Shown here in pieces: positions 2,321 to 60,098 of a stretch of 64,000 bases of DNA. This DNA comes from Methanomassiliicoccales archaeon. GTDB lineage: Archaea > Thermoplasmatota > Thermoplasmata > SG8-5. The DNA lies in NCBI GenBank assembly GCA_030612505.1, contig JAUWNU010000001.1, positions 1,233-65,232 on the forward strand, given 5' to 3'. The position numbers and the translations under genes were made by a program. The notes beneath the pieces were generated by a model. The model did not search any database. It saw nothing but the letters and a program-made list of their open reading frames with translations, and was not told the DNA's origin. Numbering within the stretch: the first letter of the stretch is position 1; every line of letters starts with the position of its first letter.

Positions 2321-2387
2321 TGTTTCTATTGATGCTACAAATGTCCTCAAAAGATATTTAAAGGGGAGAATACAATATAATAAAACA

Positions 2388-2395
2388 AAAGAGGT
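2388..2395 (+). promoter_or_regulatory. Shine-Dalgarno site GAGGTGAG, 7 nt upstream of the FG-GAP protein start. Similar GGAGG sites precede the starts at 1576, 8392 and 10390.
   Basis: Complementary to the archaeal 16S 3' end CCUCC. Recurs at consistent spacing before several genes. Confidence 0.6.
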
Positions 2396-2401
2396 GAGAA
2401 G

Positions 2402-40990: not shown

Positions 40991-43900
40991 TCAGGGTGGA
41001 ACAGTGAACTCCCATGTATAGTCTAATACATTACCATAAATGTCCTCTGCAACTATTTGACAGACCACAGTAGTTCCAGGAGCAAAACCTGCTTCGTGAT
41101 AGTATGAAACATTGTAACCGTCTGTGATGGGATCTAAATCGTAGAAAACAGAGAATGCGCTGACGTAAAGCCGGATAGTGCTTACTTCCACTCCAAACAT
41201 GTCTGTTATATGAATTGAAATTACAGGTGTTGTATTGGTCGATGCTCCATCTGGTGGAGGATATTCATTTGAATGCTGAGGTGGAATTGTATCGCTTATC
41301 ACAGTCCAAGTGCAGTTGTCTGTGACTTTCACCCAATAACCTTCACCGGCAGTCATTGTGACTGTGGTCAGATCGTAAACATCTCTTATGAGCATTGGTG
41401 CTGTGGAATCATAAACAGCTATACTTCCTACAGGTAATCCAGATAATGCGTCAGAAGCTAGTCTGTCATTGTATGAAGGATAGCCCACAAGGTTATAACC
41501 ATAGTACAAAGGTATCTCAGTAATTATAGGTTTACTTCCCATTACTGCCAATGTAGTATTAGCCGTTGCATGTATCCAAATACCCATTGTATGGTTAATG
41601 TATAGCAGGTTATTTTGATATTCTGGCTTATAGATGTTATAAGATTTCCAATAATCTAATCTTGTATCAAACCACCTTGCACGATCCCACTCGCCTTCTA
41701 TAGTGTAGAATGCAGACCGGATGTATGGATCGAATTGTATATTAGGCAGGGAAATCAGGTTCCAGCCTTCGTGCAATGGTAATAGGAAAGGTTCACTTAA
41801 TATGATTATTACTTCCTTGCTTTGGTTCATATATGCGTTTGGTGTGGCATAACCTATAAGGTTCTCATACGTTGCAGTTGCATAGTGGGGTGTGCTGAGT
41901 GTTCTAGTAATTGAATTCTCCACATATTCTGTACAGATAACCCAGTTAGTTCTTCCATTAATATTCGTGGTTCGTAATTCAACTAAATTGTGAGATGTAT
42001 CATTCACCCAAACGGTTGCATTAGAAGTGGGCTCAAGAGACTCATAGAGAACTTTTACATGGAGGAACCATTGGACTGTAAGATTTGATGAAGCATCCCA
42101 GTATATTGTATTGGTCTTATTGAAGGTTGTATTTAGAGAAACTGGGTGGGAGTCACCACCAATGCTGAAGTCATAACCGGTACTATTTGTAATAGTGGAA
42201 TTTACTATCAGGAAAGAGGAATCATAACAATAGATTGCATCGTTTACAGTGTCTGAAATAATGTTGTTTCTGAGTTCGGTTCTCAGAACGTATTTTATAT
42301 TAATATTCTCCAATACGATTTTTCCCTGCTCGTCAACACTGACATTCAGAGGTATAGTGACATCCCCTAAACCTGTACCTGATACTCTACTGTTCAACAA
42401 GCTTACTAATCCATTGTCTGTTTCATTGATGAAAACGATTTCATTAAATTCACCACTATACACCCAATCCTCAACACCATCATCTCCAATGTCAAGCTTA
42501 ACATTGCTTGAGAAAATGTCATCTCCAAATATTCTCATGTCAACAAAATGAATGTGTGTTGTTTGTTCTTCTTCACACATTTCTTGCCAGGCTACTATGT
42601 TTCCATGAATTGATTGACTAGGATTTGGGCTAATACCTGCTGTCAAAGAAAGAATGGTTGTATTACCATCAGATATGTCATATATGGCAACTCCAAATGG
42701 TCCAGGAACTGCATTGATTATCTGGTAAACTACTTTATCGCCCCAGATTTCCGGTTGCACATTATTATGAGCATTCGTAATCTTAACAGTCTCATTGTTG
42801 GAAAGATTGAACACATAGATATTCCACCAGTTATCCGATGTGACACCATCTTTGTCGCTTTGCCAAGCTATAAAATTATTATGGATACTTGGGGATGTGT
42901 TGATGGTTCCACTGCCAAGTGGGGTAATCCATTTTTCACTGTCATCTCCTCCACCATCTTCAAACACACCATTTAGTCCAAGGTCATATAAGTATATTGC
43001 ATATTCCCAACCTAGATATTTGTGCCATACAATCTTATTCCCAAAGATACAAGGAGCATCATCAATTTCAAGATTATTTGTTATTCTAGTCTCTTCGTTT
43101 GATGTCAGATTATACATATAAATTTCATAATTTCCGTCGCGAGAATCACGCCACACAACTTTATCGTTATGTATACTAGTAGAATAACCTCTGGAAACCT
43201 TGTTGGATAGTTCGGTTACAATATCTGCCGAGATATTATAAGAATATAGGTGATTTTCATATATCCAAACATATTGATCATCCCAAAGAGCACCTTGTAT
43301 TGCCATAATGTTACTTCCCACATCCACTAGATACTCCTCTTCCATAGTTGAAATATTGTAAGTAAAGAGGCTATAAACTCCTTCCCGTTTATCTAACCAG
43401 TATACTCGGTCTTCCCAAACATGTGCATAATGTTGACCCATTCCCGCTGGATTAGAAACTACTTCTACACTAGTTCCTAATGATTCTCCTGAAATCACGA
43501 AAGTTGACTCATCCAAAATAATGGCCCTGTTTGGAACAGTGAGTGTTGGTAGGGGATTAAGATACGACTCTGGATTGAAAAAGCCGAAATCTCTTTTTCT
43601 ACTCCCATCAGAAAGGCAATTTATTGAAAGTTCTGGAGAATAACTAGAATTTTCAAAATATACACCATAACCATTGATTGAAATGATATTATTTGCTATA
43701 TAAGGACCTGATGAACGGGAATATATTCCGTATGCTATGTTCTGGGAGATATTGTTGTTCATAATCGATGGATGTGAGCTATCACAAAATATACCATAGT
43801 TGTTCAATCTTATATTGTTCCCTGTTATATTCATTGGTTCTTCGTTTGAGTTTATGTAGATACCATAACTAAACAAAGATATTGTATTGTTCTCTATGGT

Positions 43901-46900
43901 AGTTTTTGCTGTTCCGTATATGCCTATTCCTCTTTGGGTTCCGGTTCCAGTGATGTTGTTCTCTTGAATTACAGGATAACATGTATAGGTGGTTGAGGTG
44001 GATCCATAAGCATACACTACATGCCCTGTTCCAGATTGTATGAAAGTATTGTTCTTAATGTTCGCTAAGCTATCGTAGCAGTAAATGAGGTTGGATGAGC
44101 TTCCAGAGATATTATTATGGGAAATAGTTGTTGGTCGTTTACCTCCATACATATAGATACCATAGGTGTTGCTTGAGAATATATTGTTGTAACTTATTGA
44201 CGGCCAAGAAGCAAAGAGATAGATGCCATAGGTGTTGCTTGAGGAAATATTGTTTCTTATTACCTCAGTACTAGAAGACCATACCATATAGCAACCATAT
44301 CTGTTTAGGAGTATATTGTTGTCTTCAACGATGGCATGACTACCTTGATCTCTTATACCAGCACCGGATGTATAACCGTATCCATTTGAAGTTATGTTAT
44401 TACCAGCGATTGTTGCACCAGAAGATTGTATATATATCCCACAATTATCATTTGAAGTTATGTTGTTTCCGCTAATTAATGACGTGTCGGATGAAGTACT
44501 CTTAATGCCAACCAGATTTAACTGAATTGTATTGTCGGTTATTGTGCTCTGAGACCACCATCCAGTAAGTATCCCGATGCCATCGTTGGAATTTATATGG
44601 TTCCGTGTTATAATCGCCATTGAACGTATCACAAATATTCCTTGATAATTCAGGGAGATTGTATTGTTATCGACTGTTGAAAGTCCACCTCCCTCTAAAT
44701 ATATTCCACGCACATTGTTTAAAGATATGTTATTGCCATCTCTTAAGACAGGGGACGCCGAGTTGCTATATACTCCATAATTAGTGTTTGAAATAATTGT
44801 ATTACCGATTATACTTGGGCTGGCTAAGATAGCCACAGATATACCGATAGTGTTCCAACCTATGTCATTGTTCTCTATAGTAGGGGCACTGTTATTTACA
44901 TAAATACCTCGTGGGTTTGAGCTTATATTGTTATTGTTGGCGATAATCAATGATGTGGCTGCCTCATTTATTTGTATTCCGTCATTCCAGTTATAATTGA
45001 TATTGTTTGCTTCAATATTTGAGGAACTATCTTTTCCAACCACGATGCCATGATAATTGTCTGTAAGGTTGTTTTTTGTAATATGGGGCGAAGAGTCACC
45101 AATAACAACTATCCCTGACCCTACATCGAAATCAAACATTACAACGAATTTGAAATATTCACCGGAATTATCATCGATAGCAATATTATCAGCAACATCT
45201 TTTGACTGAACCGCAAAATAGTATGTTACACCATGAAGCAAATTCGTAAGAAATACAATGTGGGCTGTGGTCTTTCTCGGGTTCGAAGCTGTTGTTAAGG
45301 GAGGTACATTGTCACCCCAAATTACCGTGCTGTCACTACTTTCGTCAGTGTCCCAGGTGATTGCCACAGTGCCATATGATAATCTTGTGACTGCAATATT
45401 GGAAATAATGGGCATCGTATCGTCGATAATAGCTGTGTCAATAGCTGTTGCCGGACTGCCTGTTCCATCATCTGCATCTTCATATTCAACAGTTATTGTG
45501 TCACCTGATTTTACCTGTAATATATTGTCTGGAGGATTTGAATCTCCATACTCCAATGTCGCACTGCCAGTAAAGTAACTGGAGCCTGAGACCGTCTCTG
45601 TCAAAGTGGACTGTAATAAATCTCCGGTTGGACTGCTCGCGAGGTTAATCATTATGTTTGGTATTGCTGTCAAGTCCGCATCGACCAAGTTTATTCCTGC
45701 TGTTGAGTTTGACTGATATGCCGTTTTATCAAATTCAACAATGCCTTTGCTTGTAGGTGTCCCGTGATAGTTCAGAACAATGGCATAATCCTGGTCAATC
45801 GCAGATGTGGCAGAAATACTATCCTCTAACAAACTTACGGCAATTACTCTTACTATGTAAGTTCCCACCAAAAGCTCCGAAGGATTGATGTACACACATT
45901 CTATATTGTTTATATCATCGTTTTGAATCAGAGATGAATCTGACCAACCGTTTGAAAATTGATTGCCATAATATACCGTACCATCAGGTGCAATCACATC
46001 AAGATCCAGGTTGTTTACCAAGGTCTTAGCTGCATTCGGCGAGCCTGGAGGATCTGTCCAGGCCATTGTGATCTTGAGCGGCTGGGTTGTATCTGTTACT
46101 GTGACCTTATACTCTTGCCATTGTCCGTTTTCCAATAACTGATGGTCATCATGTGTTATTGTGCCTACTGGCTCAAGGGCATTTGTCAGATTCATTCTAC
46201 CCCATCCCTCATTTCCGTTTGGTATATCTGGAGTGCCAATATCATCTGCACTGTTTATCAATACTGCCTTTATCATAGCCGGGCTCGGATCTACTCCGTA
46301 GAGATTTCTGTAGTATTCAATAAACAACGCGGCTCCGCCTGCGACATGTGGACATGCCTGGCTAGTACCTGAACACCACTGATAATCATCATCTATGTTT
46401 TGGTATCCTGCTGCAACCAGGCTTGGGCTTCCATCATGAGTTTGTAAAGAAGCAATCCATGTTCCAGGTGCGACAATGTCTGGTTTAATTCTTCCATCAT
46501 CAGTAAGCCCTCTGCTACTGAAGTAGGCAATTTCATCTGGGTTATCTGCTGCACTGCTCCCCTCTAGTCTGTAATTTTCTGATGCACCCACAGTGATTAC
46601 GTTTTTTGCATTCCCAGGGCTTCCTGTAGAACCTGCACCAGCACTACCTTCATTTCCTGCAGCAAATATCATAGTGTATTCTTGATCTCCAGCAGTATCA
46701 TTGTCAGCGTCTCTAACAAGGGCATCGAATTCAGCATCGTCTAGAGTGTACGCCCCATAACTCCTACTTCCCCAACTGTTACTACCTAGCACTGCTCCAC
46801 GAATAAAAGCATCTTTCACTAATTCTTGATTTGATGGGCCTTCCCAGGAATCTGAATCGCCAAATATCCTCTGAGCCAATATTTTGGCATTTGGTGCAAC

Positions 46901-49900
46901 ACCTAATCCATACAGATAGCTGTTGGTGTCTGTTGTTCCAATTGAAGCGTTACCAGCTACAATCCCTGTACAATGTGTTCCATGTCCATTGATATCTTCA
47001 GCAACACCATCTGTATCATCATCTTCTGTATAGTCAATATATCCTAATACTCTGCCTCGCAGATCTTCATGCATTGTTCCATTTACACCTGTATCGAGAC
47101 CTGTATCAACAATAGAGATATTCACGCCAGTTCCATTGTATCCTAGGCTATTTACATAAGAGCCATAACCTGGGAAAGAGCCGCCAACTATTTCATCAGA
47201 AACTTCGTCAAATATCTCAGGAACCATATAAGGCTCAATCCAATATACCTCCGGAATATGTGCAACTTTTGATACAATATCAGAGTTAATCTGGATTCTC
47301 ATATTGTAATAATCTCTAAATTGCCATTCCTTTAGAACCACGTTGCTCAAAGAAGTGACTTCTGCGACTATATCAGATACAGCATCAGTATTCATTATCA
47401 TAACAGTGACATTTGTAGAATTTTGGAGGTTTCTATTGATTTTTGAGCTGATTTTGTAAGCTGGTTGATATAGGCCGCACCACTGAATGAAAGGCAGATT
47501 TTCCACGCTGGTTTTCGTTGTCTCGTCCATCATTACACCAAATGCATTACTTGGTACAGAGTCATAGACTGTCGCACCTAACCCCTCAATCTGCTCTATC
47601 ATTTCATTTGTAAGAGGTTCGGAGAACTGGACAAGATACAACCCATCAACCCCCGGCGGATAAGCTTCGATTTTAAGATCACTTGAAATTAACGGTTCAC
47701 CTTCAATTGTATCAAATGAGATGGAATCCAGTGATATTTGAGTTTGAGATTGCGGTCTTCTATTGAGTAATTGAAGAAGTGCTGGTGAAGAAAAGATGCT
47801 ACCGCCTGAACCGGGCAATCCTTTTCCACTGTATGTTGTAGCAGAAACAAAGTTATCCGAGATGTATGGCGATCCACCAGAGACAACAATTCCTGCTTGC
47901 CCATTGAAAGTTATTGTGTTTCCAATAATCGGTACGTTAGACAGAATCGAGCTTACTCCAAACCCGGTATTAAATGAGATGTTATTATTGGCAATTTTCG
48001 TGTATTCTGAGAGTAAAAATGGAACTGAAACAGGATTTGCTTTTGAGGATCCTACGAAGATTGTGAATGTTTGGTACGCATCGTTCAGCCACAGATCGAA
48101 AGTCACCGTGCCACCAGTTATGTTAAAGTCCAATGAATCCTCACCGCTTCCTTCATTCATGTTAAAAGATGTCGGATTGCCTATTCCTGCAGTATCGCCT
48201 TCTCCTGTCTCAAAGTCGAAGTAGTTCAAATTCGTAAAGCTCTCGCTTGCAGTTATTGTTCCGTTGAAGTAATCTGTACCTCCGTCGCCACTCATTCTCA
48301 AATGCCAACCAGCATTGTCATGCCAGATGAAATAGCCCACATCTGTTCCGGGAATGTATGTCGGCTCACCATAGGGACTGATCATATTATGGACGCTGGT
48401 GCCATTTCCCTGATTATATTGAATTGTATTGTTTACAATCCTTCCGATGGACGAATCCAGGTATATTCCTTCACCAACATTGTCTTCTATCAGACAATTT
48501 TCGATTATGGGGCTGCTCATGCCCTCGACAAAGATACCGTGCCCGAGGTCTGCCTTGGTCACATTGCTGTTCATGATTGTTGGAGAGGAATCTTTGACGT
48601 AGATGTTGTGTGTGGTTCCTTCCATGATTTTACTGCCAGCGATATTTACTTTACTTCCTTCAAGTGCCTGGATGCCTCCTGGTTTGCTGAGGTCTGAAAT
48701 ATCGCCCCACATCCACCGAACAGAACTGTTATCCGTGACGTTGAGCCACGAATTAGTGAAAAACTTGTATGAAAGAGATTCTTGTTTTGCAACGATAATA
48801 GACCGATCTAAGATATCAAAACTTCCACCATGATTGAGTTTTATCTTGAGCGGTGATTCTAATGGGTCAATCCTGTCTATTCTCAATGTGACATTATCTT
48901 CGAATATCAGTCGTCCGGTAGAATTGATTATCAAATCTCCGCCAAGACCGTATCTGTCCTGCAATCTTATCTCCACATTATTGTATCTCTCTTCTGTGTC
49001 CACGTAATGCGTCGAGTTCCACCAGATAGTTCCACCAATCACCCACACACCTTCCCTGATGACATTATCGCCTTCATTTGCCTCGCCGATTTTGTTCTCG
49101 GGGTCTATGTGAATGTTCAGATAATGGGGGCCTCTGGTCTCGGGAGTCCATTCAAATGTAACAAAATCTTCGGAACCGCTCTCTATCTTGCTGATGGTGG
49201 ATGAGGATAAAAGCGTCTTATCTCCGTTCTCTAATTCATCGTATATATCTACTTGAACATCCTTGGCAGATACTATTCCAGCATTGCTCACGGGAATTTT
49301 TATCCAGCTTGGTTCGCCCTTGATCAAATCGCCTTCTATCTCAATGTATTGTGGTATCGCTGTAAGGTCTGGTGGAAATATCAATCTGGTTTCATCTATC
49401 TTCACAATCGCCCACGTGCCAAATATCTCCGGCAATCTTCCCTTTATCACATAATCTCCTATCTCATCTTTTGTTTCGAGAAGAAGTTCTTCACCAGCTT
49501 CTAAGAAAGCTTGTATATCTTTGTCTTCTGCCAGATTCTTCATTGCAGTTTGATATTTGTTGAGAGCAAGTGAAAATTTATTGTCGATAATTCCCCACCA
49601 ATTATCTCTGCCGAGTTGAATTGTACCTGTAACTCTTATCTCGGCAATGCTTTTCTCCGCATTTGCGATATCTTCAGACATAGGATTATCGACCATTACA
49701 TCTGTAGTTTCAATCAAGTTGTTAATCATAGACCAGACTTCCAGTATCAACATATCTGCGTCTGCCTCGTTGATTGTTCCCTGCTTCTCAAGCAAGGATA
49801 TCTTGTCTACTACCAAAAAGGCAGAATCAACCGCGTGATTTAATGTATTAACTGCCTGTGCTGTCTTCCCATTGTCATAGAAATTATCAGCGAGATTCAA

Positions 49901-50917
49901 TTTACGTTCGATAACATCGAGCAAAGAATTGATTCCTCTTGAGTGTGGTTCTCCCACCTTTTCATCAACAAGGTCTCTGAGATTGATAACTTGCTCTTTT
50001 ACTGATTCTATCATAAATGGAACCGTGACAACAACAATCTCACTGTGCGCGATGTTATTGGTCTCATCTGCTTCATAGAATGTCTCATCTGGGTCAACCA
50101 CTGCAAAAATCATGTATTCTCCTTCAAAGCCAGTAGTATTCCAATTCAGAGAGGCGGTCATCGGCTGAGAAAGTCCGTGAAATGAGGACATACGAGTTCC
50201 GATTTTATTGTCTTCGTCTACAAAATTCAAATAGAAAGAAACATTGACATCCGGGGCACCCTGGGCGGCCGTTATCACAGCAGTAACAGTAATAATTTCA
50301 CCTGCTTCGGGTCTGATATTTGAAAAGCTGACACCCCTCACTGATAAATCCTGTTCAATTCCCAATTCATCAAATTCTTCTTCCGGTGGCGGGGCATCTT
50401 CTGCAAATTCATCAATAGGCATGGAAAATTCTGATAAAGTATCTGGAGAACCCTCGGTAGACAAAAGACTATCAGCTGACGCTATTTTAGAATCCTGGCT
50501 GTTGAAATATAAATCTAATTTCTTCCCGAATCCTATGTGTTCAATAACAAACGTTTCATAAATCGTGCTGCCGTCACTGACCGCAGTAATCTGGATAGTA
50601 TCTCCAACTTCATAACCGCTTGGCAATTCTTCCAATATACATTCATACGCACAAGTTTCGTATACCTCTGCCTTAATGGATTCACCTGTTCTCAGATTTT
50701 CAATAGTAATGTCCACATTGCTTATCAAATTGCCATTCCCATCATAGACAAAACCATAAACATCAAAAGGTGGTATTGGAGCACCATTGTTTCCAGTCAT
50801 TCCTTGTGCCTGAGCTGTTGAGAACGCACTGAATATGAACAACATTACAACCAAACTCGCAAAAATCTTTGTCTTACTACCCACTTCCACACCGTTTCTC
50901 TTCACTTCTGTATTCAT
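40991..50917 (-). CDS. Giant secreted multidomain protein (3308 aa): signal peptide, CarboxypepD_reg-like and CARDB N-terminal module, PbH1 beta-helix repeats, S8 subtilase domain (about 46250-47200), a second long PbH1 repeat block, a PD40-like beta-propeller repeat block, and a C-terminal GWNL domain (about 41270-41800)
   Basis: Subtilase triad motifs VNISIVDTGLD (Asp, about 47100), HGTHCTGIVAGN (His, about 46960) and WCSGTSQACPHVAGGAALF (Ser, about 46350). Dozens of NNISxNxxGIY beta-helix repeats. Propeller repeats such as DKVVWRDSRDGNYEIYMYNL. Confidence 0.85.
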   Translation of the reverse strand: MNTEVKRNGVEVGSKTKIFASLVVMLFIFSAFSTAQAQGMTGNNGAPIPPFDVYGFVYDGNGNLISNVDITIENLRTGESIKAEVYETCAYECILEELPSGYEVGDTIQITAVSDGSTIYETFVIEHIGFGKKLDLYFNSQDSKIASADSLLSTEGSPDTLSEFSMPIDEFAEDAPPPEEEFDELGIEQDLSVRGVSFSNIRPEAGEIITVTAVITAAQGAPDVNVSFYLNFVDEDNKIGTRMSSFHGLSQPMTASLNWNTTGFEGEYMIFAVVDPDETFYEADETNNIAHSEIVVVTVPFMIESVKEQVINLRDLVDEKVGEPHSRGINSLLDVIERKLNLADNFYDNGKTAQAVNTLNHAVDSAFLVVDKISLLEKQGTINEADADMLILEVWSMINNLIETTDVMVDNPMSEDIANAEKSIAEIRVTGTIQLGRDNWWGIIDNKFSLALNKYQTAMKNLAEDKDIQAFLEAGEELLLETKDEIGDYVIKGRLPEIFGTWAIVKIDETRLIFPPDLTAIPQYIEIEGDLIKGEPSWIKIPVSNAGIVSAKDVQVDIYDELENGDKTLLSSSTISKIESGSEDFVTFEWTPETRGPHYLNIHIDPENKIGEANEGDNVIREGVWVIGGTIWWNSTHYVDTEERYNNVEIRLQDRYGLGGDLIINSTGRLIFEDNVTLRIDRIDPLESPLKIKLNHGGSFDILDRSIIVAKQESLSYKFFTNSWLNVTDNSSVRWMWGDISDLSKPGGIQALEGSKVNIAGSKIMEGTTHNIYVKDSSPTIMNSNVTKADLGHGIFVEGMSSPIIENCLIEDNVGEGIYLDSSIGRIVNNTIQYNQGNGTSVHNMISPYGEPTYIPGTDVGYFIWHDNAGWHLRMSGDGGTDYFNGTITASESFTNLNYFDFETGEGDTAGIGNPTSFNMNEGSGEDSLDFNITGGTVTFDLWLNDAYQTFTIFVGSSKANPVSVPFLLSEYTKIANNNISFNTGFGVSSILSNVPIIGNTITFNGQAGIVVSGGSPYISDNFVSATTYSGKGLPGSGGSIFSSPALLQLLNRRPQSQTQISLDSISFDTIEGEPLISSDLKIEAYPPGVDGLYLVQFSEPLTNEMIEQIEGLGATVYDSVPSNAFGVMMDETTKTSVENLPFIQWCGLYQPAYKISSKINRNLQNSTNVTVMIMNTDAVSDIVAEVTSLSNVVLKEWQFRDYYNMRIQINSDIVSKVAHIPEVYWIEPYMVPEIFDEVSDEIVGGSFPGYGSYVNSLGYNGTGVNISIVDTGLDTGVNGTMHEDLRGRVLGYIDYTEDDDTDGVAEDINGHGTHCTGIVAGNASIGTTDTNSYLYGLGVAPNAKILAQRIFGDSDSWEGPSNQELVKDAFIRGAVLGSNSWGSRSYGAYTLDDAEFDALVRDADNDTAGDQEYTMIFAAGNEGSAGAGSTGSPGNAKNVITVGASENYRLEGSSAADNPDEIAYFSSRGLTDDGRIKPDIVAPGTWIASLQTHDGSPSLVAAGYQNIDDDYQWCSGTSQACPHVAGGAALFIEYYRNLYGVDPSPAMIKAVLINSADDIGTPDIPNGNEGWGRMNLTNALEPVGTITHDDHQLLENGQWQEYKVTVTDTTQPLKITMAWTDPPGSPNAAKTLVNNLDLDVIAPDGTVYYGNQFSNGWSDSSLIQNDDINNIECVYINPSELLVGTYIVRVIAVSLLEDSISATSAIDQDYAIVLNYHGTPTSKGIVEFDKTAYQSNSTAGINLVDADLTAIPNIMINLASSPTGDLLQSTLTETVSGSSYFTGSATLEYGDSNPPDNILQVKSGDTITVEYEDADDGTGSPATAIDTAIIDDTMPIISNIAVTRLSYGTVAITWDTDESSDSTVIWGDNVPPLTTASNPRKTTAHIVFLTNLLHGVTYYFAVQSKDVADNIAIDDNSGEYFKFVVMFDFDVGSGIVVIGDSSPHITKNNLTDNYHGIVVGKDSSSNIEANNINYNWNDGIQINEAATSLIIANNNNISSNPRGIYVNNSAPTIENNDIGWNTIGISVAILASPSIIGNTIISNTNYGVYSNSASPVLRDGNNISLNNVRGIYLEGGGLSTVDNNTISLNYQGIFVIRSMAIITRNHINSNDGIGILTGWWSQSTITDNTIQLNLVGIKSTSSDTSLISGNNITSNDNCGIYIQSSGATIAGNNITSNGYGYTSGAGIRDQGSHAIVEDNNILLNRYGCYMVWSSSTEVIRNNISSSNTYGIYLFASWPSISYNNIFSSNTYGIYMYGGKRPTTISHNNISGSSSNLIYCYDSLANIKNNTFIQSGTGHVVYAYGSTSTTYTCYPVIQENNITGTGTQRGIGIYGTAKTTIENNTISLFSYGIYINSNEEPMNITGNNIRLNNYGIFCDSSHPSIMNNNISQNIAYGIYSRSSGPYIANNIISINGYGVYFENSSYSPELSINCLSDGSRKRDFGFFNPESYLNPLPTLTVPNRAIILDESTFVISGESLGTSVEVVSNPAGMGQHYAHVWEDRVYWLDKREGVYSLFTYNISTMEEEYLVDVGSNIMAIQGALWDDQYVWIYENHLYSYNISADIVTELSNKVSRGYSTSIHNDKVVWRDSRDGNYEIYMYNLTSNEETRITNNLEIDDAPCIFGNKIVWHKYLGWEYAIYLYDLGLNGVFEDGGGDDSEKWITPLGSGTINTSPSIHNNFIAWQSDKDGVTSDNWWNIYVFNLSNNETVKITNAHNNVQPEIWGDKVVYQIINAVPGPFGVAIYDISDGNTTILSLTAGISPNPSQSIHGNIVAWQEMCEEEQTTHIHFVDMRIFGDDIFSSNVKLDIGDDGVEDWVYSGEFNEIVFINETDNGLVSLLNSRVSGTGLGDVTIPLNVSVDEQGKIVLENINIKYVLRTELRNNIISDTVNDAIYCYDSSFLIVNSTITNSTGYDFSIGGDSHPVSLNTTFNKTNTIYWDASSNLTVQWFLHVKVLYESLEPTSNATVWVNDTSHNLVELRTTNINGRTNWVICTEYVENSITRTLSTPHYATATYENLIGYATPNAYMNQSKEVIIILSEPFLLPLHEGWNLISLPNIQFDPYIRSAFYTIEGEWDRARWFDTRLDYWKSYNIYKPEYQNNLLYINHTMGIWIHATANTTLAVMGSKPIITEIPLYYGYNLVGYPSYNDRLASDALSGLPVGSIAVYDSTAPMLIRDVYDLTTVTMTAGEGYWVKVTDNCTWTVISDTIPPQHSNEYPPPDGASTNTTPVISIHITDMFGVEVSTIRLYVSAFSVFYDLDPITDGYNVSYYHEAGFAPGTTVVCQIVAEDIYGNVLDYTWEFTVPP

Positions 50918-51062
50918 CTAAATTCCTCCCGACAACAAGATGACTAAAAAACGCCCCCTAACCTGACCCTGATGATGTTATACATGCAAAAAACTTTCTA
51001 TGAAAAAACAGCATGTTAAAAAGTAATATACTGGAAACGATAGAAAATCTAATTAAGAAGTT

Positions 51063-54000
51063 ATGAGTTATATTCATTACATGTGCGGGAAAAGAGTGTC
51101 AGTAATTCTTTCGATTATTCTTGTTATCATTCTTATTTTACCTGTTGTGAATCTTTCAGCAAACAAGCCAGAGCAAAAACCAACTCCTAAAATGAATCCA
51201 GTAAATAATGAAGCTTTCGGTTTTCCACCTGGCTGGTCTGACGACATTCAATTGACTTTCATACCTGGGTTGGGGTCGAATGTACGGGCTTCCATGATAA
51301 CAAATAGGGATGTCATCCACATTGTTTGGGAGAATATGACAGATGGCCATATCGGATACTGCCGTAGCGAGGATGCTGGAAGGACGTGGACAGAGCCTAG
51401 AATCATAACCTCTGGAAATGTGGCAGGGAACCCAAGGATTGCCATAAACGGTTCCCATATACACGTTGTATATGAGAAGGATACTGGCTTCACATCTGAA
51501 ATCATGTATCAGAACAGCACTGACAATGGTGAGACATGGAGTTTACCTGTGATGTTGTCCCTCAATGACGGAGTTTGGTGCGCAATACCAGACATTGCCG
51601 TTGATGGCGATAACATTCATGCGGTATGGGAAGATGAAGATGCAAGCGGACCCGGAATTTATGAGATTATATATCGCAACAGCACAGATGGAGGAAAAAC
51701 TTGGAATTCACAGGTTCAACTAACCAATTATCCAGGAGGTTCTGATGCATCAGCAAAAATCGCCATTAATGAGTCTGTAGTTCATGTGGTCTGGGGAAGG
51801 TTCGTTACTGCCACAGGCAGTTTTGAAACAATGTACCGCCGCAGCCTGGACGGAGGCTCAATCTGGGAAGCTGAAATGCAGATAACAAAACCAGGTTCTG
51901 GACATTCCTATGCCCCTGATCTGGCAGTGAACGGCTCCAATGTTTATGCAATCTGGATGGACAGCAGGGATGGTTCATGGGAAACGTATATCAACACCAG
52001 CTTCGATGATGGCCAGACTTGGAATGGAGAAATAAGGTTGACCGATGTTGATGGCCGCAACTCATTTGGGGCTCATGTAGGTGTCTGGAATGAGACTGTT
52101 TACGTTGTCTGGGGAGACCCGAGGGACGATTACCCATACCCGGAAGCGCATGAAGCCTACATGAATTATAGTTTTGATGGCGGTGTTACCTGGCAGAGTT
52201 CGAATGAGAGATTACAATTTGCTCTGAATAACTCCGGGCCAAATGATATTGCGCTGACAGAGAACTATATACATGTAGTCATGAAAGACAATAGGACAGG
52301 AAAACGAGAAATATATTACAAACGCTACCCCGACTTCCAAACAGATACCACAGCTCCTTCAATAGTTCATACTCCAATCCCAAACACACCTATTGGCCAG
52401 CTGATCAATATAACAGCAAAGGTTTCTGACAATGTGGCACTCTCAGAAGTATGGCTTAACTATACTGGCATTAATGGAACCAATTACAATGTTTCGATGA
52501 CCGGCTGGGATCAGAAAAAGGTCATGGTTTCTGGATTGGGGCAAACACTCTATGCCCAGGATGGTAATTATTCATTTGAGATTCCTGCGCAGAATGGTGT
52601 TGGTGTGGTTAGCTATTACATTTGGGCTGAAGACGTGGAAGGAAATTTTAAAAATTCTCCTTGGGGCGGTAGTTATTTCGTACAGGTAACAGGGCCGCCG
52701 AGCATTGAAGTTACAAATCCCGTAGGTGGAGAAATTTGGACTGGCGGGAGCAATCACCAGATTGAGTTCACCGCTTCAGATTCAGAGGACGACCCTGCCA
52801 ATTTGACCGTCTTCCTGAATTATACCTCCGGTGCTGGCGGAGCGATTGCCATACTTCAAGGGAATCAGACACCTTATTCCTGGACATTGCCTACTATAAA
52901 TGCGATTGATGTGAAGGTCAACGCCACTGTGGTTGACAGAGATGGAAACAAAGCCTACGGTGATTCTGAAATGTTCGAGATTGATACTTCCTTGCCAGAG
53001 GCCGTCTCGACAATGCCAGCCAATGGCACAACAGGAGTTTTCATCTATCAGTCTGTTGTCATCCAGTTTAACGAACCAATGAACACCTCCACCGTTACAG
53101 CGGCACAAACAGGCGGGATCGACCCAGGCAGTTGGTCATGGTTCTGGAATGTGGATAAGGACACGATTACTGGCATACATGATGCGTGGTCTAGGGGAGA
53201 TATTATTGAGATAACTGTTCAACCAAATTATAAAGATGATTCTGATCAGGGAAATGCTAACAGCACATCCTGTGTTTTTTCGTTCACAACCGAAACCAAT
53301 CCGTCACCTGAGATAGTCCACACAAATATTTCAAGTCCGCAGGAACTGGGGGATGAGATTAGAATAAACGCTACAATCACAGATGACAGTACAGTGATGA
53401 ACGCTGTTCTATGGTGGCAAGATATTGATGGTGTTTGGCATGAAAATTATATGAGCAAAAATGGCGATGATTGGGAGTATTGGATTCCTGGCCAGATGGC
53501 AGAAGGAAAAATAAGTTATCAAATCAATGCAACAGACGATTTACAGCAGAAAAATACCACGATAATCTATGAATTTAATGTTGAAGATACAACGCCACCA
53601 GTTATTGTTCATACACCTGTTGAGAGTGTATTAATTAATGAATCAATTAACATCACTTGCCAGGTTAGTGATTTAGGCGGGGCGAATGCTTCAGCGGTGT
53701 ATCTCTTTTACAAATGTGCAGGCGAGACTGATTATACCCAAGTAACGATGAATCCAGGATTTTGGTATGAAATACCAGCACAATCAATTCCAACCACAAT
53801 TGAATATTATCTTCTGGCTTCTGATTTCTATGGTAATAATGCTTCTACCTCTCTTTACTCTTTTGATGTAATTGATACATCCATACCAGATACTACACCG
53901 CCAGTAATTGCCCATACACCTGTTGAAAGCGCTGTTATTGGCGAATCGATAAACATCAGTTGCCAGGTTATTGACCTGGATGGAGTGGATATTGTCTATC

Positions 54001-54605
54001 TGAATTACAAAAATGAAAGTGATGTAAATTTCATCCAAGTAACAATGAATCCTGGCTATTGGTTTGAATTGCCCGCTCATTTTCTGCCAACAATAATCGA
54101 GTATTATATTCAGGCTTTTGACATATCTGGCAACGAGGCAGCAACACAAACTTACAGCTTGGAAATAATTGACCCATCTGTTCCAGATACAATGCCACCA
54201 GAAGTATTGCTAGCAACTCCGACAGGAGATAATTTTCCCATCTCAACGAGTATTTCAGTTGTGTTTAGCGAATATATGAATACGACCTCTGTGGAAGGTG
54301 CAATATCGATTTCGCTAGACATTTCCTTTAGCAGTTCATGGGCTAATAATCAAACTTTAGTTCTATCATTCACTGGCAACCTTTCTTACGACACTACTTA
54401 CACAGTTACAATAGATTCGGGAGCAAAAGACCTGGCAGGAAATACTTTGGCAAGCGATTATTCGTGGCAGTTTACGACATTAGGTGAACCAGAGGTAGTA
54501 CAACCCACAGCATCTAATGATTGGGGCTGGATTGGGATTATAATCTTTCTGATTTCGTTTATTGCTTTAATTCTAATTCATGGAGTTTACAAAGAGGAAT
54601 TGTGA
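51063..54605 (+). CDS. Surface protein paralog 1 (1180 aa): signal peptide, 7 Asp-box (BNR) propeller blades, Ig-like domains, Big_5 domain, C-terminal TM anchor
   Basis: Asp-boxes SEDAGRTWTE, STDNGETWS, STDGGKTWNS, SLDGGSIWEA, SFDDGQTWNG and SFDGGVTWQS. Big_5 segment PPEVLLATPTGDNFPISTSISVVFSEYMNTTSV. Ends GWIGIIIFLISFIALILIHGVYKEEL. Confidence 0.85.
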   Translation: MSYIHYMCGKRVSVILSIILVIILILPVVNLSANKPEQKPTPKMNPVNNEAFGFPPGWSDDIQLTFIPGLGSNVRASMITNRDVIHIVWENMTDGHIGYCRSEDAGRTWTEPRIITSGNVAGNPRIAINGSHIHVVYEKDTGFTSEIMYQNSTDNGETWSLPVMLSLNDGVWCAIPDIAVDGDNIHAVWEDEDASGPGIYEIIYRNSTDGGKTWNSQVQLTNYPGGSDASAKIAINESVVHVVWGRFVTATGSFETMYRRSLDGGSIWEAEMQITKPGSGHSYAPDLAVNGSNVYAIWMDSRDGSWETYINTSFDDGQTWNGEIRLTDVDGRNSFGAHVGVWNETVYVVWGDPRDDYPYPEAHEAYMNYSFDGGVTWQSSNERLQFALNNSGPNDIALTENYIHVVMKDNRTGKREIYYKRYPDFQTDTTAPSIVHTPIPNTPIGQLINITAKVSDNVALSEVWLNYTGINGTNYNVSMTGWDQKKVMVSGLGQTLYAQDGNYSFEIPAQNGVGVVSYYIWAEDVEGNFKNSPWGGSYFVQVTGPPSIEVTNPVGGEIWTGGSNHQIEFTASDSEDDPANLTVFLNYTSGAGGAIAILQGNQTPYSWTLPTINAIDVKVNATVVDRDGNKAYGDSEMFEIDTSLPEAVSTMPANGTTGVFIYQSVVIQFNEPMNTSTVTAAQTGGIDPGSWSWFWNVDKDTITGIHDAWSRGDIIEITVQPNYKDDSDQGNANSTSCVFSFTTETNPSPEIVHTNISSPQELGDEIRINATITDDSTVMNAVLWWQDIDGVWHENYMSKNGDDWEYWIPGQMAEGKISYQINATDDLQQKNTTIIYEFNVEDTTPPVIVHTPVESVLINESINITCQVSDLGGANASAVYLFYKCAGETDYTQVTMNPGFWYEIPAQSIPTTIEYYLLASDFYGNNASTSLYSFDVIDTSIPDTTPPVIAHTPVESAVIGESINISCQVIDLDGVDIVYLNYKNESDVNFIQVTMNPGYWFELPAHFLPTIIEYYIQAFDISGNEAATQTYSLEIIDPSVPDTMPPEVLLATPTGDNFPISTSISVVFSEYMNTTSVEGAISISLDISFSSSWANNQTLVLSFTGNLSYDTTYTVTIDSGAKDLAGNTLASDYSWQFTTLGEPEVVQPTASNDWGWIGIIIFLISFIALILIHGVYKEEL

Positions 54606-54674: not shown

Positions 54675-55229
54675 TCATCCAAATTCATCCAATTCTTCTT
54701 CCGGTGGCGGGACATCTTCTGCAAATTCATCAATGGGCGCGGAGAATTCCGATAAATTATCTGGAGTGCCCTCGGTAGACAAAAGACTCTCAGTTGATGT
54801 TATTTTAGAGTCCTGGCTGTTGAAATGTAAATCCAATTTAGTCCCGAATCCTATACGTTCAACAATAAATGTTTCATAAATTGTGGTGTCATCATTAACC
54901 GCAGTAATCTGGATAGTGTCTCCAATTTCATAGCCGCTCGGCAATTCTTCTAAATCACATTCATATGCACAAGTCTCATAGACATTTGCCTCAAGCGTCT
55001 CAGTGGTTCTAAGGTTTTCAATTGCAATCTCAACATCGTAAACAGGATTGCCGTTCTCGTCATAGATTTGCCCATAAAGCACATAAGGCGGTGTCGGCAC
55101 TCCTTCATTTTCTGCCACTCCCTGCGCCTGAGCGGTTGAGAATGCACTGAATATGAACAGTGCCACAATTAAGCTCGCAATAGTCTTTGTTCTAGCCCCC
55201 ATGATATTTGATTTTGTATTTTTCGTCAT
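54675..55229 (-). CDS. Secreted CarboxypepD_reg-like domain protein (184 aa), a truncated paralog of the giant protein's N-terminal module
   Basis: Signal ASLIVALFIFSAFSTAQAQG. YGQIYDENGNPVYDVEIAIENLRTTETLEANVYETCAYECDLEELPSGYEIGDTIQITAV aligns with the first 180 residues of the 40991-50917 protein. Terminates after the acidic linker PPPEEELDEFG. Confidence 0.75.
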   Translation of the reverse strand: MTKNTKSNIMGARTKTIASLIVALFIFSAFSTAQAQGVAENEGVPTPPYVLYGQIYDENGNPVYDVEIAIENLRTTETLEANVYETCAYECDLEELPSGYEIGDTIQITAVNDDTTIYETFIVERIGFGTKLDLHFNSQDSKITSTESLLSTEGTPDNLSEFSAPIDEFAEDVPPPEEELDEFG

Positions 55230-55405
55230 TTTCCTACCCCCTGATATGATGGTTAATATTGCAAGGGCAATCGCATTGGTGAGATATAAAATCTTGTGAA
55301 TGCACGATAATATTGTGTAAAGAAAAAGGATGTTTTTATGACGAAAACCTATAGTTTGTAGTTAAAGAGACAAAAGTATTTTAGGAATGATGCGAATGGA
55401 GATTT

Positions 55406-58400
55406 GTGTTGAAAAAATCGATAGGAAGAAAACGGCAGATCTTTCTAGTATCTGCAACTACATTCGTAATCATTACCTTGTTATTGAGTTCTATGGTAGT
55501 TATAATTTTCCCTCAAAATACTGCCAAACAGATTGATAATGTGATTAATACATTTCCACCGGGTTGGACAGATGACATTCAAATGACCCTCTTAACAGAA
55601 TTGGGCTCTCAAATAAGACCCGCTCTTGCATCTGAAGGAGAGGTTATTCATTTAATCTGGGAAAATAGGTCAAGTATCCATAAATTGGAATATAGACGAA
55701 GCAATGATGCGGGAAGGACATGGACAGAAACTAGAATGATTACTTCGGGGGAAGTGGGTAATCAGAAAATAGCCATTAATGGATCTCAGATTCATGTCGT
55801 TTATGAAAAGGACTTTGGTATCGGTTTAGAAATAGTATATCAAAATAGTACGGACAACGGGGATACCTGGAATGCTCCTGTGATGTTAACTCCCAATGAT
55901 GGAATTTGGACCCAGCTCCCTGATATTGCGGTTATCAATGACACGATTCATATAGTCTGGGAAGATGAAGGCACAAGTGCTCCTGGAAGTTGTGAAATAT
56001 TCTATCGCAACAGCACAGATGGAGGAATATCTTGGAATCCAACGATTCAACTCACAAATTACCCTGGGGGGTCAGATACCGAGGCAAAAATCGCTGTTAA
56101 CGGCTCTATAGTTCATATAACCTGGGGTAGATTTGTTACGGGGACGGGGACGTTTGAAGCAATGTATCGACGAAGCCTAGATGGAGGTTCAACCTGGGAG
56201 GCAGAAAAGCAGATAAGCCTACCAGGATCTGGACATTCTGAGCCTAGCGACCTCGCCGTGAATGGCTCCAGCGTTTACACAATATGGATGGACAGCAGGG
56301 ATGGATCGTGGGAGACATATATTAACTCCAGCTTTGATAACGGCCAGACTTGGAATGGCGAAATGAGACTGACCGATGCCGATGGTCGGAACTCATTTGG
56401 CGCACATGTTGGTACATGGGATCAAACTGTTTATGTTGTCTGGGGAGACCCAAGAGACGATTATCCGTACCCAGAAGCGCACGAAGCGTACATGAACTAC
56501 AGTTTTGACGGCGGTGTAACCTGGCAGAGTTCGAATGAAAGATTACAATTTGCCCTGAATAATTCCGGGCCTGGTGACATTGCCCTAACAGAAAACTCTG
56601 TACATGTAGTCATGACAGATAATAGAACAGGAAAAAAGGAAATTTATTACAAACGTTATCCTGATTTCCCAGCAGATATTGCGTCACCATCTATAATCCA
56701 TACACCCACCTCAAGCACACCTATAGGCCAATCAATCAATATCACAGCCAAAGTTACTGATAATGTGGCCCTCGCAGATGTCTGGTTGAATTATACCAGC
56801 GTGAATGGGACAAATAACAATGTTTCTATGACTGGCTGGAATCAGAAAGAAGTCATGGTCTCGGGGTTGGGACAAACACTCTATGCCCAGGATGGTAATT
56901 ATTCGTTTGAGATTCCTGCTCAGCAAAGTGCTGGTGTCATGAATTATTATATTTGGACAAATGATACCAGTGGAAATGAAAACTGGATTGGGACTTATCA
57001 GGTTCAAATTTTTGACATGACCAAGCCAATAATCAATCATGTTCCTGTAGCTTCTTCAAAAATAAACGAGCCGATTGATATAGGTGTAAATGTGACTGAT
57101 AACGGCGAGGTTGCGAATGTAACTCTATACTATGAAAATGTGGGCGTTACGACCTATACAGCCGTTGACATGACTCCCGTATCCGGCAATTGGGCTGCAA
57201 CAATCCCAGCACAAAATGAAACTGGCTTGGCTCATTACTTCATATGGGCGAACGATACGTCTGGGAATAATGTAACTGATCCATTAATGGGAAGCCATGC
57301 GGTTCAGATAACTGGGCCCCCGAGCATTGGGGTTACAAATCCAGTAGGTGGTGAGGATTGGACTGGCGGGAGCAAGCATTTGATAGAGTTTGTTGCGTCT
57401 GATACTGAGGATAATTCCGAGAATTTGACGGTGTTCCTGAATTATACATTTACTACTGGCCAAGGTGATATTGCCATCTCGATAAAAGGGGATGAATCTC
57501 CATATCTTTGGACGTTGCCAAATATCGATGCGACTGATGTTGTTGTAAATGCCACAGTTGTTGATTCTGATGGGAATAAAACCTATGATGATTCGCCAAT
57601 ATTTACGATAGATTCTTCACCGCCAGAAGTAATTTCGACTAATCCAGTAAATAATACAACAGGTATTTCTATTTTCCAGCCGATAGTAATTCAGTTCAAT
57701 GAAAAAATGAATATATCTTCGGCTGTTGTAAATCAAACGAATGGTACTGACCCTGGTGGTTGGTTTTGGTTCTGGAATCAGGACAAGGATACAATTACAG
57801 GGATTCATGATGCCTGGCTCAGAGGAGATAATGTAGAGATAACAGTCCAGATAGGATACAAGGATGATTCTGAACCTGGAAACATCAATAACACTGCTTA
57901 TGTTTTTTCATTCACAACTGAAACAAACCCTTCGCCTGAGATAAACCATATGAATATTTCAGTCCCACAGGAATTGGGTGATGCAATAAGAATTAATGCA
58001 ACAATCACAGATGATGGCACAGTGATGAACGGTGTTCTTTGGTGGCAGGATGTTGATGACATCTGGCATGAGAATTATATGGATAAAGATGGTGATGATT
58101 GGGAGTACACCATACATGCTCAAATGGCTGTGGGTAAAGTCAAATATCAAATCAATGCAACCGATGACTTTGAGCAGAAAAATTCAACTATTATTTACGA
58201 GTTCGATATTAGAGATTCAACGCCTCCAGTTATTATCCATACGCCTGTTGAAAGTGCAGTTATTGGTGAGGCGATAAACATCACCTGTGAGATTATTGAT
58301 TTAAGCGAGGTGAATATAGCATACATGACATCTGGGGTGTTTTTTGTTTACAGATACGAAGGCGACACTGGCTTCACATATGGAGTGATGAACCCGGGTT

Positions 58401-58996: not shown

Positions 58997-59932
58997 TTAA
59001 TATTTCTGGCAAGTTATCTTGTCTATTAGAAATGGAACTGTTAATACCACGATTTCACTGTGCGCGATGTTGTTGGTTTCATCTGCCTCATAAAATATCT
59101 CATCTGGGTCAACCACTGCAAAGATTATATGTTCTCCTTCAAAACCAGTGCTGTTCCAGTTCAAAGAGGCGGCCATTGGTTGAGAAAGTCCGTGGAATGA
59201 AGACATACAAGTTCCGATATGATTGGCTTCGCCTACGAGATTCAAATAGAAAGAAACATTGACATCAGGAGTACCCCGATTGGCGGTTATCACAGCAGTG
59301 ACAGTAACTATTTCACCTTCTTCTGGTCTGATATTTGAAAAACTGACACCTCTTACAGACAGGTCTTGTTCAATTCCAATATTATCTAACTCTTCTTCCG
59401 ATGGCTGGGCATCTTCTGGATATTCATCAATAGGCATGGAGAATTCTGATAAAGAATCTGGAGAACCCTCGGTAGACAAAATGCTATTCGATGCTGCTAT
59501 TTTAGACTCCTGGCTGTTGAAATATAAATCCAATTTCTTCCCGAATCCTATGTGTTCAACAACAAACGTTTCATAAATTGTGCTGCCGTCACTAACCGCG
59601 GTAATCTGGATAGTGTCACCGAGTTCATAACCGCTAGGCAATTCTTCCAATATACATTCATACGCACACGTTTCATAGACCTCTGCTTCAAGCGTCTCAG
59701 CGGTTCTCAGATTTTCAATAGTAATGTCCACGTTGCATATCAAATAGCCATCTCCATCATGGATAAAACCATAAACATCAAAAGGTGGTATCGGAGCACC
59801 ATTGTTTCCAGTCATTCCTTGTGCCTGAGCTGTCGAGAACGCACTGAATATGAACAGTGCCACAATCATACTCGCAAAAATCTTTGTCTTATTACCCACT
59901 TCCACACCGTTTCTCTCTATTTCTGTTGTCAT
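58997..59932 (-). CDS. Secreted CarboxypepD_reg-like plus CARDB protein (311 aa), a paralog of the giant protein's N-terminal 300 residues
   Basis: About 85 percent identical to residues 1-300 of the 40991-50917 protein, including the CARDB motif FAVVDPDEIFYEADETNNIAHSEIVV. Ends 39 bp from the convergent neighbour. Confidence 0.8.
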   Translation of the reverse strand: MTTEIERNGVEVGNKTKIFASMIVALFIFSAFSTAQAQGMTGNNGAPIPPFDVYGFIHDGDGYLICNVDITIENLRTAETLEAEVYETCAYECILEELPSGYELGDTIQITAVSDGSTIYETFVVEHIGFGKKLDLYFNSQESKIAASNSILSTEGSPDSLSEFSMPIDEYPEDAQPSEEELDNIGIEQDLSVRGVSFSNIRPEEGEIVTVTAVITANRGTPDVNVSFYLNLVGEANHIGTCMSSFHGLSQPMAASLNWNSTGFEGEHIIFAVVDPDEIFYEADETNNIAHSEIVVLTVPFLIDKITCQKY

Positions 59933-60098
59933 TTGAAATCCTCCTAACCTTATGGTGACTAAAAATCCGTCCCCCGACCTGACTGAGATATTGTCATAAG
60001 TTTAAAAAACTATCTTATAGAAAAACAACATGTTAAAAAATATTATGCTTGAAAGATAGAAAACATAATTATAGAAGTTACGAGTTATATTCGTTAAC

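Follow-up and report, generated by a model that had tools for sequence, protein, structure and literature searches.

We analysed a 64,000-nt window of contig JAUWNU010000001.1 (assembly GCA_030612505.1, positions 1,233-65,232; coordinates below are window positions) that carries a giant minus-strand gene for a 3308-amino-acid (aa) protein built around an S8 protease. The host is an uncultured Thermoplasmata archaeon, and the protein is probably a multi-domain subtilase that leaves the cell by the Sec route and stays associated with its surface. Its KP-43-type S8 domain has every catalytic residue and is fused to a jelly roll. Giant size is ordinary in the family of proteins that share this protease module; the rare feature is that the module, with its putative pro-domains, lies in the middle of the chain. 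Apart from this position, only the conserved partner gene and an unannotated domain in the tail of the protein are unusual.

Sequence and structure of the protease module

Pfam Peptidase_S8 (PF00082) matched residues 1262-1573 over the entire profile (positions 1-288 of 288), with an E value of 2.7e-48 and 165.2 bits against a cutoff of 21.8. The active site is marked by VDTG at residue 1270 (D1271), HGTHC at 1312 (H1312), AAGNEG at 1419 (oxyanion N1422), and GTSQACPH at 1517 (S1519); the codons of the triad lie on the minus strand at 47105-47107 (D1271), 46982-46984 (H1312), and 46361-46363 (S1519). KP-43, an oxidatively stable alkaline protease (PDB structure 1wmd), was the best match among PDB sequences (phmmer E 3.5e-78), followed by SubHal, with the archaeal Tk-SP at E 3.6e-29. 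The alignment to 1wmd spans chain residues 15-419 of 434 and runs through the C-terminal beta-barrel of KP-43. D1271, H1312, and S1519 align with the triads of KP-43 and the subtilisins, and N1422 with the faagNeg motif of KP-43. A preliminary description of this DNA had called the triad complete, and it does align residue for residue with those of solved subtilases, within an uninterrupted reading frame. Triad and oxyanion asparagine are invariant in the window protein and the four homologues that share its mid-chain protease, and the triad is likewise invariant in alignments A1 and A2.

We modelled residues 1040-1930 with AlphaFold2 (AF2), at a predicted local distance difference test score (pLDDT) of 85. 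Foldseek aligned this model with 1wmd at a template modelling score of 0.93 (normalised to 1wmd) and a root mean square deviation of 2.4 Å. The model also matched the pro-forms of Tk-SP and Tk-subtilisin. Immediately before the S8 domain it contains, at high pLDDT, two tandem beta-alpha-beta-beta-alpha-beta units, so that the structure prediction proposed earlier as a way to find a pro-domain returned candidates for two. We read both units as I9-like pro-domains on the basis of the model. Sequence and model together predict an enzyme that looks capable of working.

KP-43 (from Bacillus sp. KSM-KP43) and SubHal (5fax) are subtilases with a fused C-terminal beta-barrel or jelly roll, as in the giant protein. 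The S8 domain and jelly roll of KP-43 align with it end to end at about 38% identity (Foldseek alignment), the catalytic D-H-N-S set is the same, and KP-43 has a long pro-region like the putative one of the giant protein. However, KP-43 is a mature secreted enzyme of 434 residues, whereas its equivalent in the giant protein occupies only residues ~1251-1700 of 3308; the putative pro-domains are preceded by about 1050 residues, and about 1600 follow the unit. Tk-SP of Thermococcus kodakarensis (3afg, 9ues; Foldseek E 3e-30) is also an archaeal secreted S8 protease with propeptide and jelly roll, but it shares 23-26% identity, has one propeptide, totals about 660 residues, and lacks repeat arms.

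Residue 1520 (46358-46360, minus strand), next to the catalytic serine, is glutamine (GTSQACPH), in contrast to the methionine of KP-43 (GTSMATP) and classical subtilisins. Glutamine here is the consensus of the module family (GGTSQAGPH). Methionine next to the catalytic serine is the oxidation-sensitive residue of subtilisins.

Three named S8 equivalogs were tried and rejected by NCBIfam score against cutoff: mycosin (76 versus 279 bits), dentilisin PrtP (38 versus 300), and IteS (23 versus 900). The IteS_antiphage hit (E 1.7e-05) is the one observation that would favor reading the giant protein as an IteS-like antiphage peptidase or another defense protein. However, that weak hit covers the generic S8 core only, the protein has a signal peptide and domains of extracellular type, and no defense genes adjoin it; we regard this reading as barely credible.

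Relatives and the rarity of the mid-chain position

The conserved module consists of the two putative I9-like pro-domains, the KP-43-type S8 domain, the jelly roll, an immunoglobulin-like (Ig) domain, and a fibronectin type III (FN3) domain. We searched exhaustively with residues 1060-2000 using HMMER and obtained 32,610 proteins at E<1e-3, including 4,178 at E<1e-30. An apparent orphan status, based on a full-length word-index search of low sensitivity that had returned the giant protein alone, was corrected by this search and rejected. We mapped the segments of the giant protein onto the best 150 representatives. An S8 domain is present in 145 of these, and the Ig/FN3 segment accompanies S8 in most homologues. 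Because 38 of the best 145 S8 representatives are at least 2000 aa long (10 are at least 3000 aa), the size of the window protein is not unusual. The earlier view that such giant surface proteases are unusual in architecture is not supported in that form, given both the number of module relatives and their lengths.

Among the same 145 representatives, the S8 domain starts at a median residue of 262, and in only four others does it start beyond residue 600: P0005 (3205 aa), P0006 (3076 aa), P0008 (3080 aa), and P0016 (2793 aa). In these four and the window protein, hereafter the embedded type, the S8 domain starts between residues 971 and 1325, behind a beta-helix arm of about 1000 aa. The order of parts in P0006, P0008, and P0016 is that of the giant protein. 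Pfam places beta-helix blocks on both sides of S8 in P0006 and P0008 and finds CARDB and beta-helix blocks in P0005.

A profile scan with alignment A1 over 185,579 GTDB species representatives returned 80 loci, which have only the module in common with the giant protein; none has the full architecture. The best relatives came from a Thermoplasmata metagenome-assembled genome (MAG; 43% identity) and a Methanophagales MAG (51%, across part of the module); many from Verrucomicrobiota and Poseidoniales came next. Apart from single extra domains, these relatives gave no match outside residues ~1040-1930, and the two closest carry the protease at the N terminus. On the Methanophagales contig (L004; open reading frames [ORFs] 3-1703 and 1703-5455), the S8 gene is preceded by an ORF whose end nearly repeats the first part of the S8 pro-region (ILLKAISFDTCMGEPSLPENLYIS versus ILLKAIGFNSSEGEPSLPENLYISEY), perhaps through local duplication or as an oddity of the assembly.

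Large proteins with this module occur in Verrucomicrobiota, Thermoplasmata, Methanophagales, Poseidoniales, and other groups, at 35-57% identity over the module, and are annotated simply as "S8 family serine peptidase." Many members of this unnamed family are 2000-4400 aa long and some end in a GWNL domain. They differ in that the module directly follows the signal peptide, whereas the giant protein and its four relatives have a beta-helix arm in front. The bacterial surface-anchored proteases PrtP, ScpA, and SpyCEP are also large, multidomain S8 proteins with FN3/Ig spacers (Foldseek E ~1e-20), but their protease is N-terminal, they are anchored through LPXTG, and identity is 13-14% in the Foldseek alignments. 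Cell-envelope proteinases and C5a peptidases form a separate S8 subgroup marked by a PA-domain insert, and none was seen in the giant protein.

Integrity of the gene and its host

The gene is intact and 9.9 kb long:

40991..50917, minus strand: giant S8 gene, one ATG-to-stop frame of 3308 codons plus stop

A GGAGG sequence lies 8 nt 5' of the ATG. An open frame of 9.9 kb in DNA of 40% G+C cannot have arisen by chance. Within the gene, we counted 16 plus-strand ORFs of at least 60 aa, which bears out the many antisense ORFs noted in the preliminary description; these ORFs show no sign of coding.

We considered whether the gene might be an artefact of assembly, or might have arisen by fusion of several genes and now be decaying, and yield no single protein. 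The sequence is metagenome-derived and rich in repeats, and the 5' end of the gene is duplicated nearby, which could mislead assemblers. However, the duplicate copies are only about 80% identical in DNA, too divergent for mis-joins. An identical protein is recorded at NCBI (68.7-kb contig) and encoded on the ENA-assembled contig ERZ4219663 NODE_486 (28.8 kb); the two may have a common origin in the same reads. P0005 comes from another sample (JGI metagenome 3300063141) and aligns with the giant protein collinearly in a single BLASTP segment, with 43% identity and 4% gaps over 3259 columns. By segment mapping, it has every domain of the giant protein except the last C-terminal segment. The parts follow one another in the same order in three more proteins (2793-3080 aa). 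Because the whole chain is conserved in relatives, mis-assembly of the gene is ruled out, and we regard the reading as artefact or decaying fusion as highly improbable.

The window encodes a CDP-archaeol synthase (CarS), an archaeal-type S-adenosylmethionine (AdoMet) synthetase, and a KaiC-like ATPase. The AdoMet synthetase and CarS have cluster mates at 90% identity or above (MCK5024886.1 and MCK5024765.1), both labelled "Thermoplasmata archaeon" in GenBank. Exact 48-mers of the window DNA had no match among GTDB species representatives, and tRNA and Rfam scans of the window were both empty.

Anatomy of the chain

We assigned the parts of the chain from Pfam and NCBIfam searches of the whole protein and of ten slices, from motif positions, and from the AF2 model. 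From N to C terminus, with all coordinates on the minus strand (-), these are as follows.

50807..50917 (-), residues 1-37: Sec-type signal peptide, read from the sequence, with basic n-region, hydrophobic core IFASLVVMLFIFSAFS, and AQA/QG junction
50513..50776 (-), residues 48-135: small beta-sandwich with motif CAYEC, weakly CarboxypepD_reg-like
residues 136-188: acidic linker between the small beta-sandwich and CARDB domain 1
50018..50353 (-), residues 189-300: CARDB domain 1 (Pfam CARDB E 3.9e-07 on the segment)
49373..50017 (-), residues 301-515: region conserved in P0005
49058..49372 (-), residues 516-620: CARDB domain 2, the best Pfam CARDB stretch (516-620)
47813..49042 (-), residues 626-1035: right-handed beta-helix block 1 (Beta_helix/NosD E 6e-17 on the segment)
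47993..48382 (-), residues 846-975: domain of ~130 aa inserted in beta-helix block 1, with motif YFIWHDNAGWH
47231..47644 (-), residues ~1092-1149 and ~1168-1229: two tandem beta-alpha-beta-beta-alpha-beta units (AF2 model)
residues 1231-1237: low-confidence linker after these units, presumed autoprocessing site
46193..47167 (-), residues 1251-1575: S8 catalytic domain (Pfam, motifs, PDB alignment, Foldseek)
45818..46192 (-), residues 1576-1700: beta jelly roll, contiguous with S8 as in KP-43
45143..45775 (-), residues 1715-1925: Ig-like and FN3-like domains (Pur_ac_phosph_N/FN3-like E 0.003; all-beta in the AF2 model)
43598..45130 (-), residues 1930-2440: beta-helix block 2, ~22 coils
42518..43435 (-), residues ~2495-2800: seven-bladed beta-propeller (TIGR04275, TolB, blade starts)
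41798..42517 (-), residues 2801-3040: region with many N-x-S/T sequons, conserved in P0005
41261..41797 (-), residues 3041-3219: all-beta GWNL domain, with GWNL at residue 3051
40994..41242 (-), residues 3226-3308: extra C-terminal segment, absent from P0005, which ends with the GWNL domain

The domain order given in the preliminary description (a secreted protein of 3308 aa with S8 between beta-helix blocks, followed by a propeller and GWNL) is right, based on the Pfam and NCBIfam matches and the motifs. Of the domain families it named, Peptidase_S8, Beta_helix, and CARDB were detected, PD40 was not, and CarboxypepD_reg matched residues 48-135 only below its cutoff (E 0.008; the equivalent in P0005 scored 3.5e-05). 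A signal-peptide-like N terminus is kept in P0005 and in the two small paralogous ORFs described below. Residues 301-515 and the insert at 846-975 had no Pfam match. P0005 and P0016 share the insert, and a metagenome scan with an alignment of beta-helix block 1 and the insert (A5) found distant copies (22-38% identity) on many soil-metagenome contigs; the scan returned solely such copies and no further embedded-type genes.

On the whole chain, Pfam Beta_helix matched seven stretches (E 9e-63), together with a NosD-type beta-helix and two CARDB domains, and para_beta_helix TIGR03804 scored above its cutoff. Identity as NosD was rejected (TIGR04247, 54.3 bits versus a cutoff of 300), with the generic beta-helix repeat alone in common. 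A motif count over residues 1949-2430 gives about 22 coils for block 2, each 22-23 residues long; block 1 has fewer. Similarly long right-handed beta-helix repeats are found in the "adhesin-like proteins" of methanogens and in NosD-type proteins. To our knowledge, no adhesin-like protein of methanogens has been reported with an embedded subtilase.

The blades of the propeller begin at residues 2500, 2544, 2582, 2624, 2678, 2724, and 2770. It matched NCBIfam TIGR04275 (beta_prop_Msarc) in three stretches, at 80.3 bits just below the cutoff of 85, and TolB weakly (E 3.4e-08; TIGR02800, 32.8 bits versus a cutoff of 343). The propeller has seven blades by motif, and its description as PD40-like holds only loosely: the hits are to TIGR04275 and TolB, and Pfam PD40 gave nothing at E<=1 on the chain slices. 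The region at 2801-3040 reads in sequence as a few further beta-helix-like coils. We read residues 3226-3308 as Ig-like by sequence pattern only; they match no Pfam family. Across the last 50 residues hydropathy peaks at 0.88, and there is no hydrophobic anchor at the C terminus.

The GWNL domain

The GWNL domain is an all-beta unit of about 170 aa (AF2 pLDDT 83) that is usually C-terminal. It contains an internal two-fold repeat, which in the giant protein reads GWNLISxP...MGIW / GYNLVGYP...GYWV and in the domain consensus GWNLxSxP...MGxW / GWNLVGYP...GYWV. The window holds three copies: one in the giant protein (41261-41797, minus strand), one in ORF 31775-37483 (32510-33050, plus strand), and one in ORF 29826-31697 (~31180-31697, plus strand). 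A hidden Markov model (HMM) built locally from these copies located GWNL in about 25 module proteins, where nearly all copies end within 3 residues of the C terminus. The domain is also C-terminal in unrelated surface proteins of two other metagenomic contigs (L002 and L083).

Annotation searches with GWNL gave no Pfam hit, no PDB sequence-profile hit, and no significant Foldseek match in the PDB (best E 0.18); a word-index search with the domain gave a single hit. Its terminal position, and its replacement of a transmembrane tail in relatives of the partner gene described next, make GWNL a probable envelope-attachment module.

The BNR-propeller partner gene

The giant gene is flanked by a divergent gene for a second surface protein:

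51063..54605, plus strand: partner gene, 1180 aa, with a BNR/Asp-box propeller, Ig domains, Big_5, and a C-terminal transmembrane helix
50918..51062: divergent intergenic region between the giant gene and the BNR gene, duplicated along with the giant-gene 5' end

BNR homologues adjoin embedded-type S8 genes in four of five contexts (the window protein, P0005, P0006, and P0008). The neighbor of P0005 is divergent and 47-50% identical over about 640 aa, that of P0008 lies directly downstream (40-42% identity), and P0006 has two divergent copies (34-38% identity). No BNR homologue is present on the short contig of P0016. Homologue coordinates are 51063-54605 (plus strand) in the window, 5120-9706 on L002, 10294-12297 on L085, and 133-4130 on L086; both BNR proteins of L086 have a GWNL domain in place of the Big_5 and transmembrane tail. 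Around ordinary module genes, none of the 80 GTDB loci has a BNR homologue (phmmer E<1e-5, up to 10 kb of flank each). The giant S8 gene and the BNR gene thus look like a two-gene cassette, and the pairing suggests glycoprotein substrates or a surface complex.

Surface-protein island and tandem triplication

A JGI contig from a relative (L083; about 81% DNA identity) is syntenic with the window through genes for an epimerase, a Big_5/caspase-like protein, a phosphoribosyltransferase, CarS, and KaiC. It then runs from KaiC straight to topoisomerase I, with neither the giant gene nor any of the three BNR units. The missing segment (window 40771-64000, compared with L083 from 10703 onward) is at least 23 kb long and reaches the end of the window. 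G+C content at third codon positions (GC3) is 0.35-0.39 in island genes versus 0.41-0.55 in core genes. The giant gene sits in a flexible, low-GC3 surface-protein island.

Within the island, a unit of about 4.5 kb is present in tandem triplicate (50007-54557, 54678-58897, and 59022-63572) at 70-81% DNA identity. Each unit consists of the giant-gene 5' end, the divergent intergenic region, and a BNR/Big_5/transmembrane gene (~1180 aa). Two copies of the 5' end form separate ORFs:

58997..59932, minus strand: 311-aa ORF, paralogue of giant residues 1-309, 83% identity
54675..55229, minus strand: 184-aa ORF, paralogue of giant residues 12-186, 72% identity

Both ORFs are intact, have kept the upstream region, and stop within 25 nt of the homology boundary. 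They encode the signal peptide, small beta-sandwich, and acidic linker, with or without CARDB. Pairwise ratios of nonsynonymous to synonymous substitution (dN/dS) among the giant-gene 5' end and the two fragments, the comparison of fragment with fragment included, are 0.22-0.32. The two ORFs appear to be kept as small secreted proteins and are probably expressed.

The whole window is rich in giant envelope proteins. ORF 31775-37483 (plus strand) encodes 1902 aa with nine Big_5 stretches (E 1.9e-122), GWNL near the N terminus, and, at the C terminus, a caspase-like Peptidase_C14 domain (E 1e-05); its counterpart on L083 is shorter (1404 aa). ORF 2402-8383 (plus strand) encodes 1993 aa with FG-GAP repeats, and ORF 8392-10221 (plus strand) encodes 609 aa with NPCBM_assoc, PKD, and Ig-like domains.

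The pairing of a protease gene with one for a glycosidase-like propeller, and their place in an island of low GC3 that varies between strains, would fit an antagonistic or predatory weapon in which the protease, pectate-lyase-like beta-helices, and a sialidase-like BNR partner attack the glycoprotein envelopes of neighbors. A preprint on predatory bacteria connects giant genes with the breakdown of cell walls. Yet the beta-helices carry no detected lyase or hydrolase catalytic motifs, the sialidase likeness of the BNR partner is confined to its Asp-boxes (E 0.0035), and toxin, immunity, and secretion-system genes are absent nearby. We consider this use of the locus improbable.

Proposed mechanism and its alternatives

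By analogy with established subtilase biology, the giant protein would be exported, the pro-domains would then chaperone folding of the S8 domain, and the enzyme would cut its own chain at the pro/S8 junction, at about residues 1231-1245. Because some 1050 residues come before the pro-domains, such a self-cut would give two large surface pieces: the N-terminal CARDB/beta-helix arm, and a protease-beta-helix-propeller-GWNL piece of about 2070 residues. The beta-helix rods and propeller may serve as spacers and binding surfaces, probably for glycans, and the GWNL domain would anchor the protein to the cell envelope. With its partner, the BNR propeller protein anchored in the membrane, the active protease could then break down extracellular protein or glycoprotein. 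MAGs of sedimentary Thermoplasmata commonly encode secreted S8A peptidases (PMC9123169). A nutritional role for the giant protease is only our leading guess, because peptidase genes alone are no proof of protein catabolism.

Several observations weigh against this account. Secreted-peptidase genes do not predict protein catabolism (PMC9123169). The signal peptide of the giant protein was assigned by eye, Pfam Inhibitor_I9 gives no hit on the pro-region, and self-cleavage into two pieces is something we purely infer. The beta-helix blocks have no catalytic signature, matching only the generic Beta_helix and NosD models and no lyase or hydrolase motif. The association of S8 and BNR genes rests on four contexts, and the partner resembles sialidases only at its Asp-boxes (the 0.0035 match is to NanB), with a partial BNR_2 hit. 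Among 252 homologues, 22 end in GWNL, 19 have a transmembrane-like or sorting-signal-like tail, and none has both, an exclusion that leans in the direction predicted for an anchor but is not significant at an expected overlap of only ~1.7 of 252. In addition, GWNL is not terminal in the giant protein, where about 85 residues follow it, and it is internal in P0008 and ORF 31775-37483.

Some of the same evidence would fit a structural or adhesive coat protein, either glycocalyx or adhesin, whose S8 domain only processes the giant protein and neighboring surface proteins and has no part in feeding. About 70% of the chain consists of noncatalytic repeat or binding domains, and other giant surface proteins lie nearby (the 1993-aa FG-GAP protein, the 1902-aa protein with nine Big_5 stretches and a caspase-like domain, and three BNR proteins). 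The island differs between relatives, as cell-surface islands do, and secreted peptidases of nonproteolytic archaea may remodel the envelope (PMC9123169). However, the protease module is conserved over thousands of proteins with very different tails, which suggests that the protease is the functional core, and no adhesion ligand or S-layer motif was identified. A coat protein is a possibility that we take seriously while judging it unlikely.

Returning to the self-cleaving surface protease, we also entertain a more elaborate form of it, which we hold to be doubtful. Here, the giant protein would be a self-cleaving polyprotein in which internal tandem pro-domains bring about the cut, and whose two giant subunits, with the dedicated, co-inherited BNR membrane protein, form a two-gene archaeal surface machine for glycoprotein breakdown or cell-cell contact. 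GWNL, which would fasten them to the envelope, would be an undescribed Thermoplasmatota anchoring fold that substitutes for a C-terminal transmembrane helix.

Significance

The locus does not overturn current understanding; it is a useful refinement and no surprise. For sedimentary Thermoplasmata, an abundant, uncultured group, a role in protein turnover has been inferred from the peptidases that they secrete. One such peptidase turns out to form the centre of a conserved module, which in the course of evolution has been joined to very different giant tails. In a small subfamily, the mid-chain position of the module and its putative pro-domains lead to a testable prediction of autoproteolytic splitting. 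The GWNL domain and the co-inherited BNR partner are two unannotated pieces that could improve the annotation of archaeal surface proteomes.

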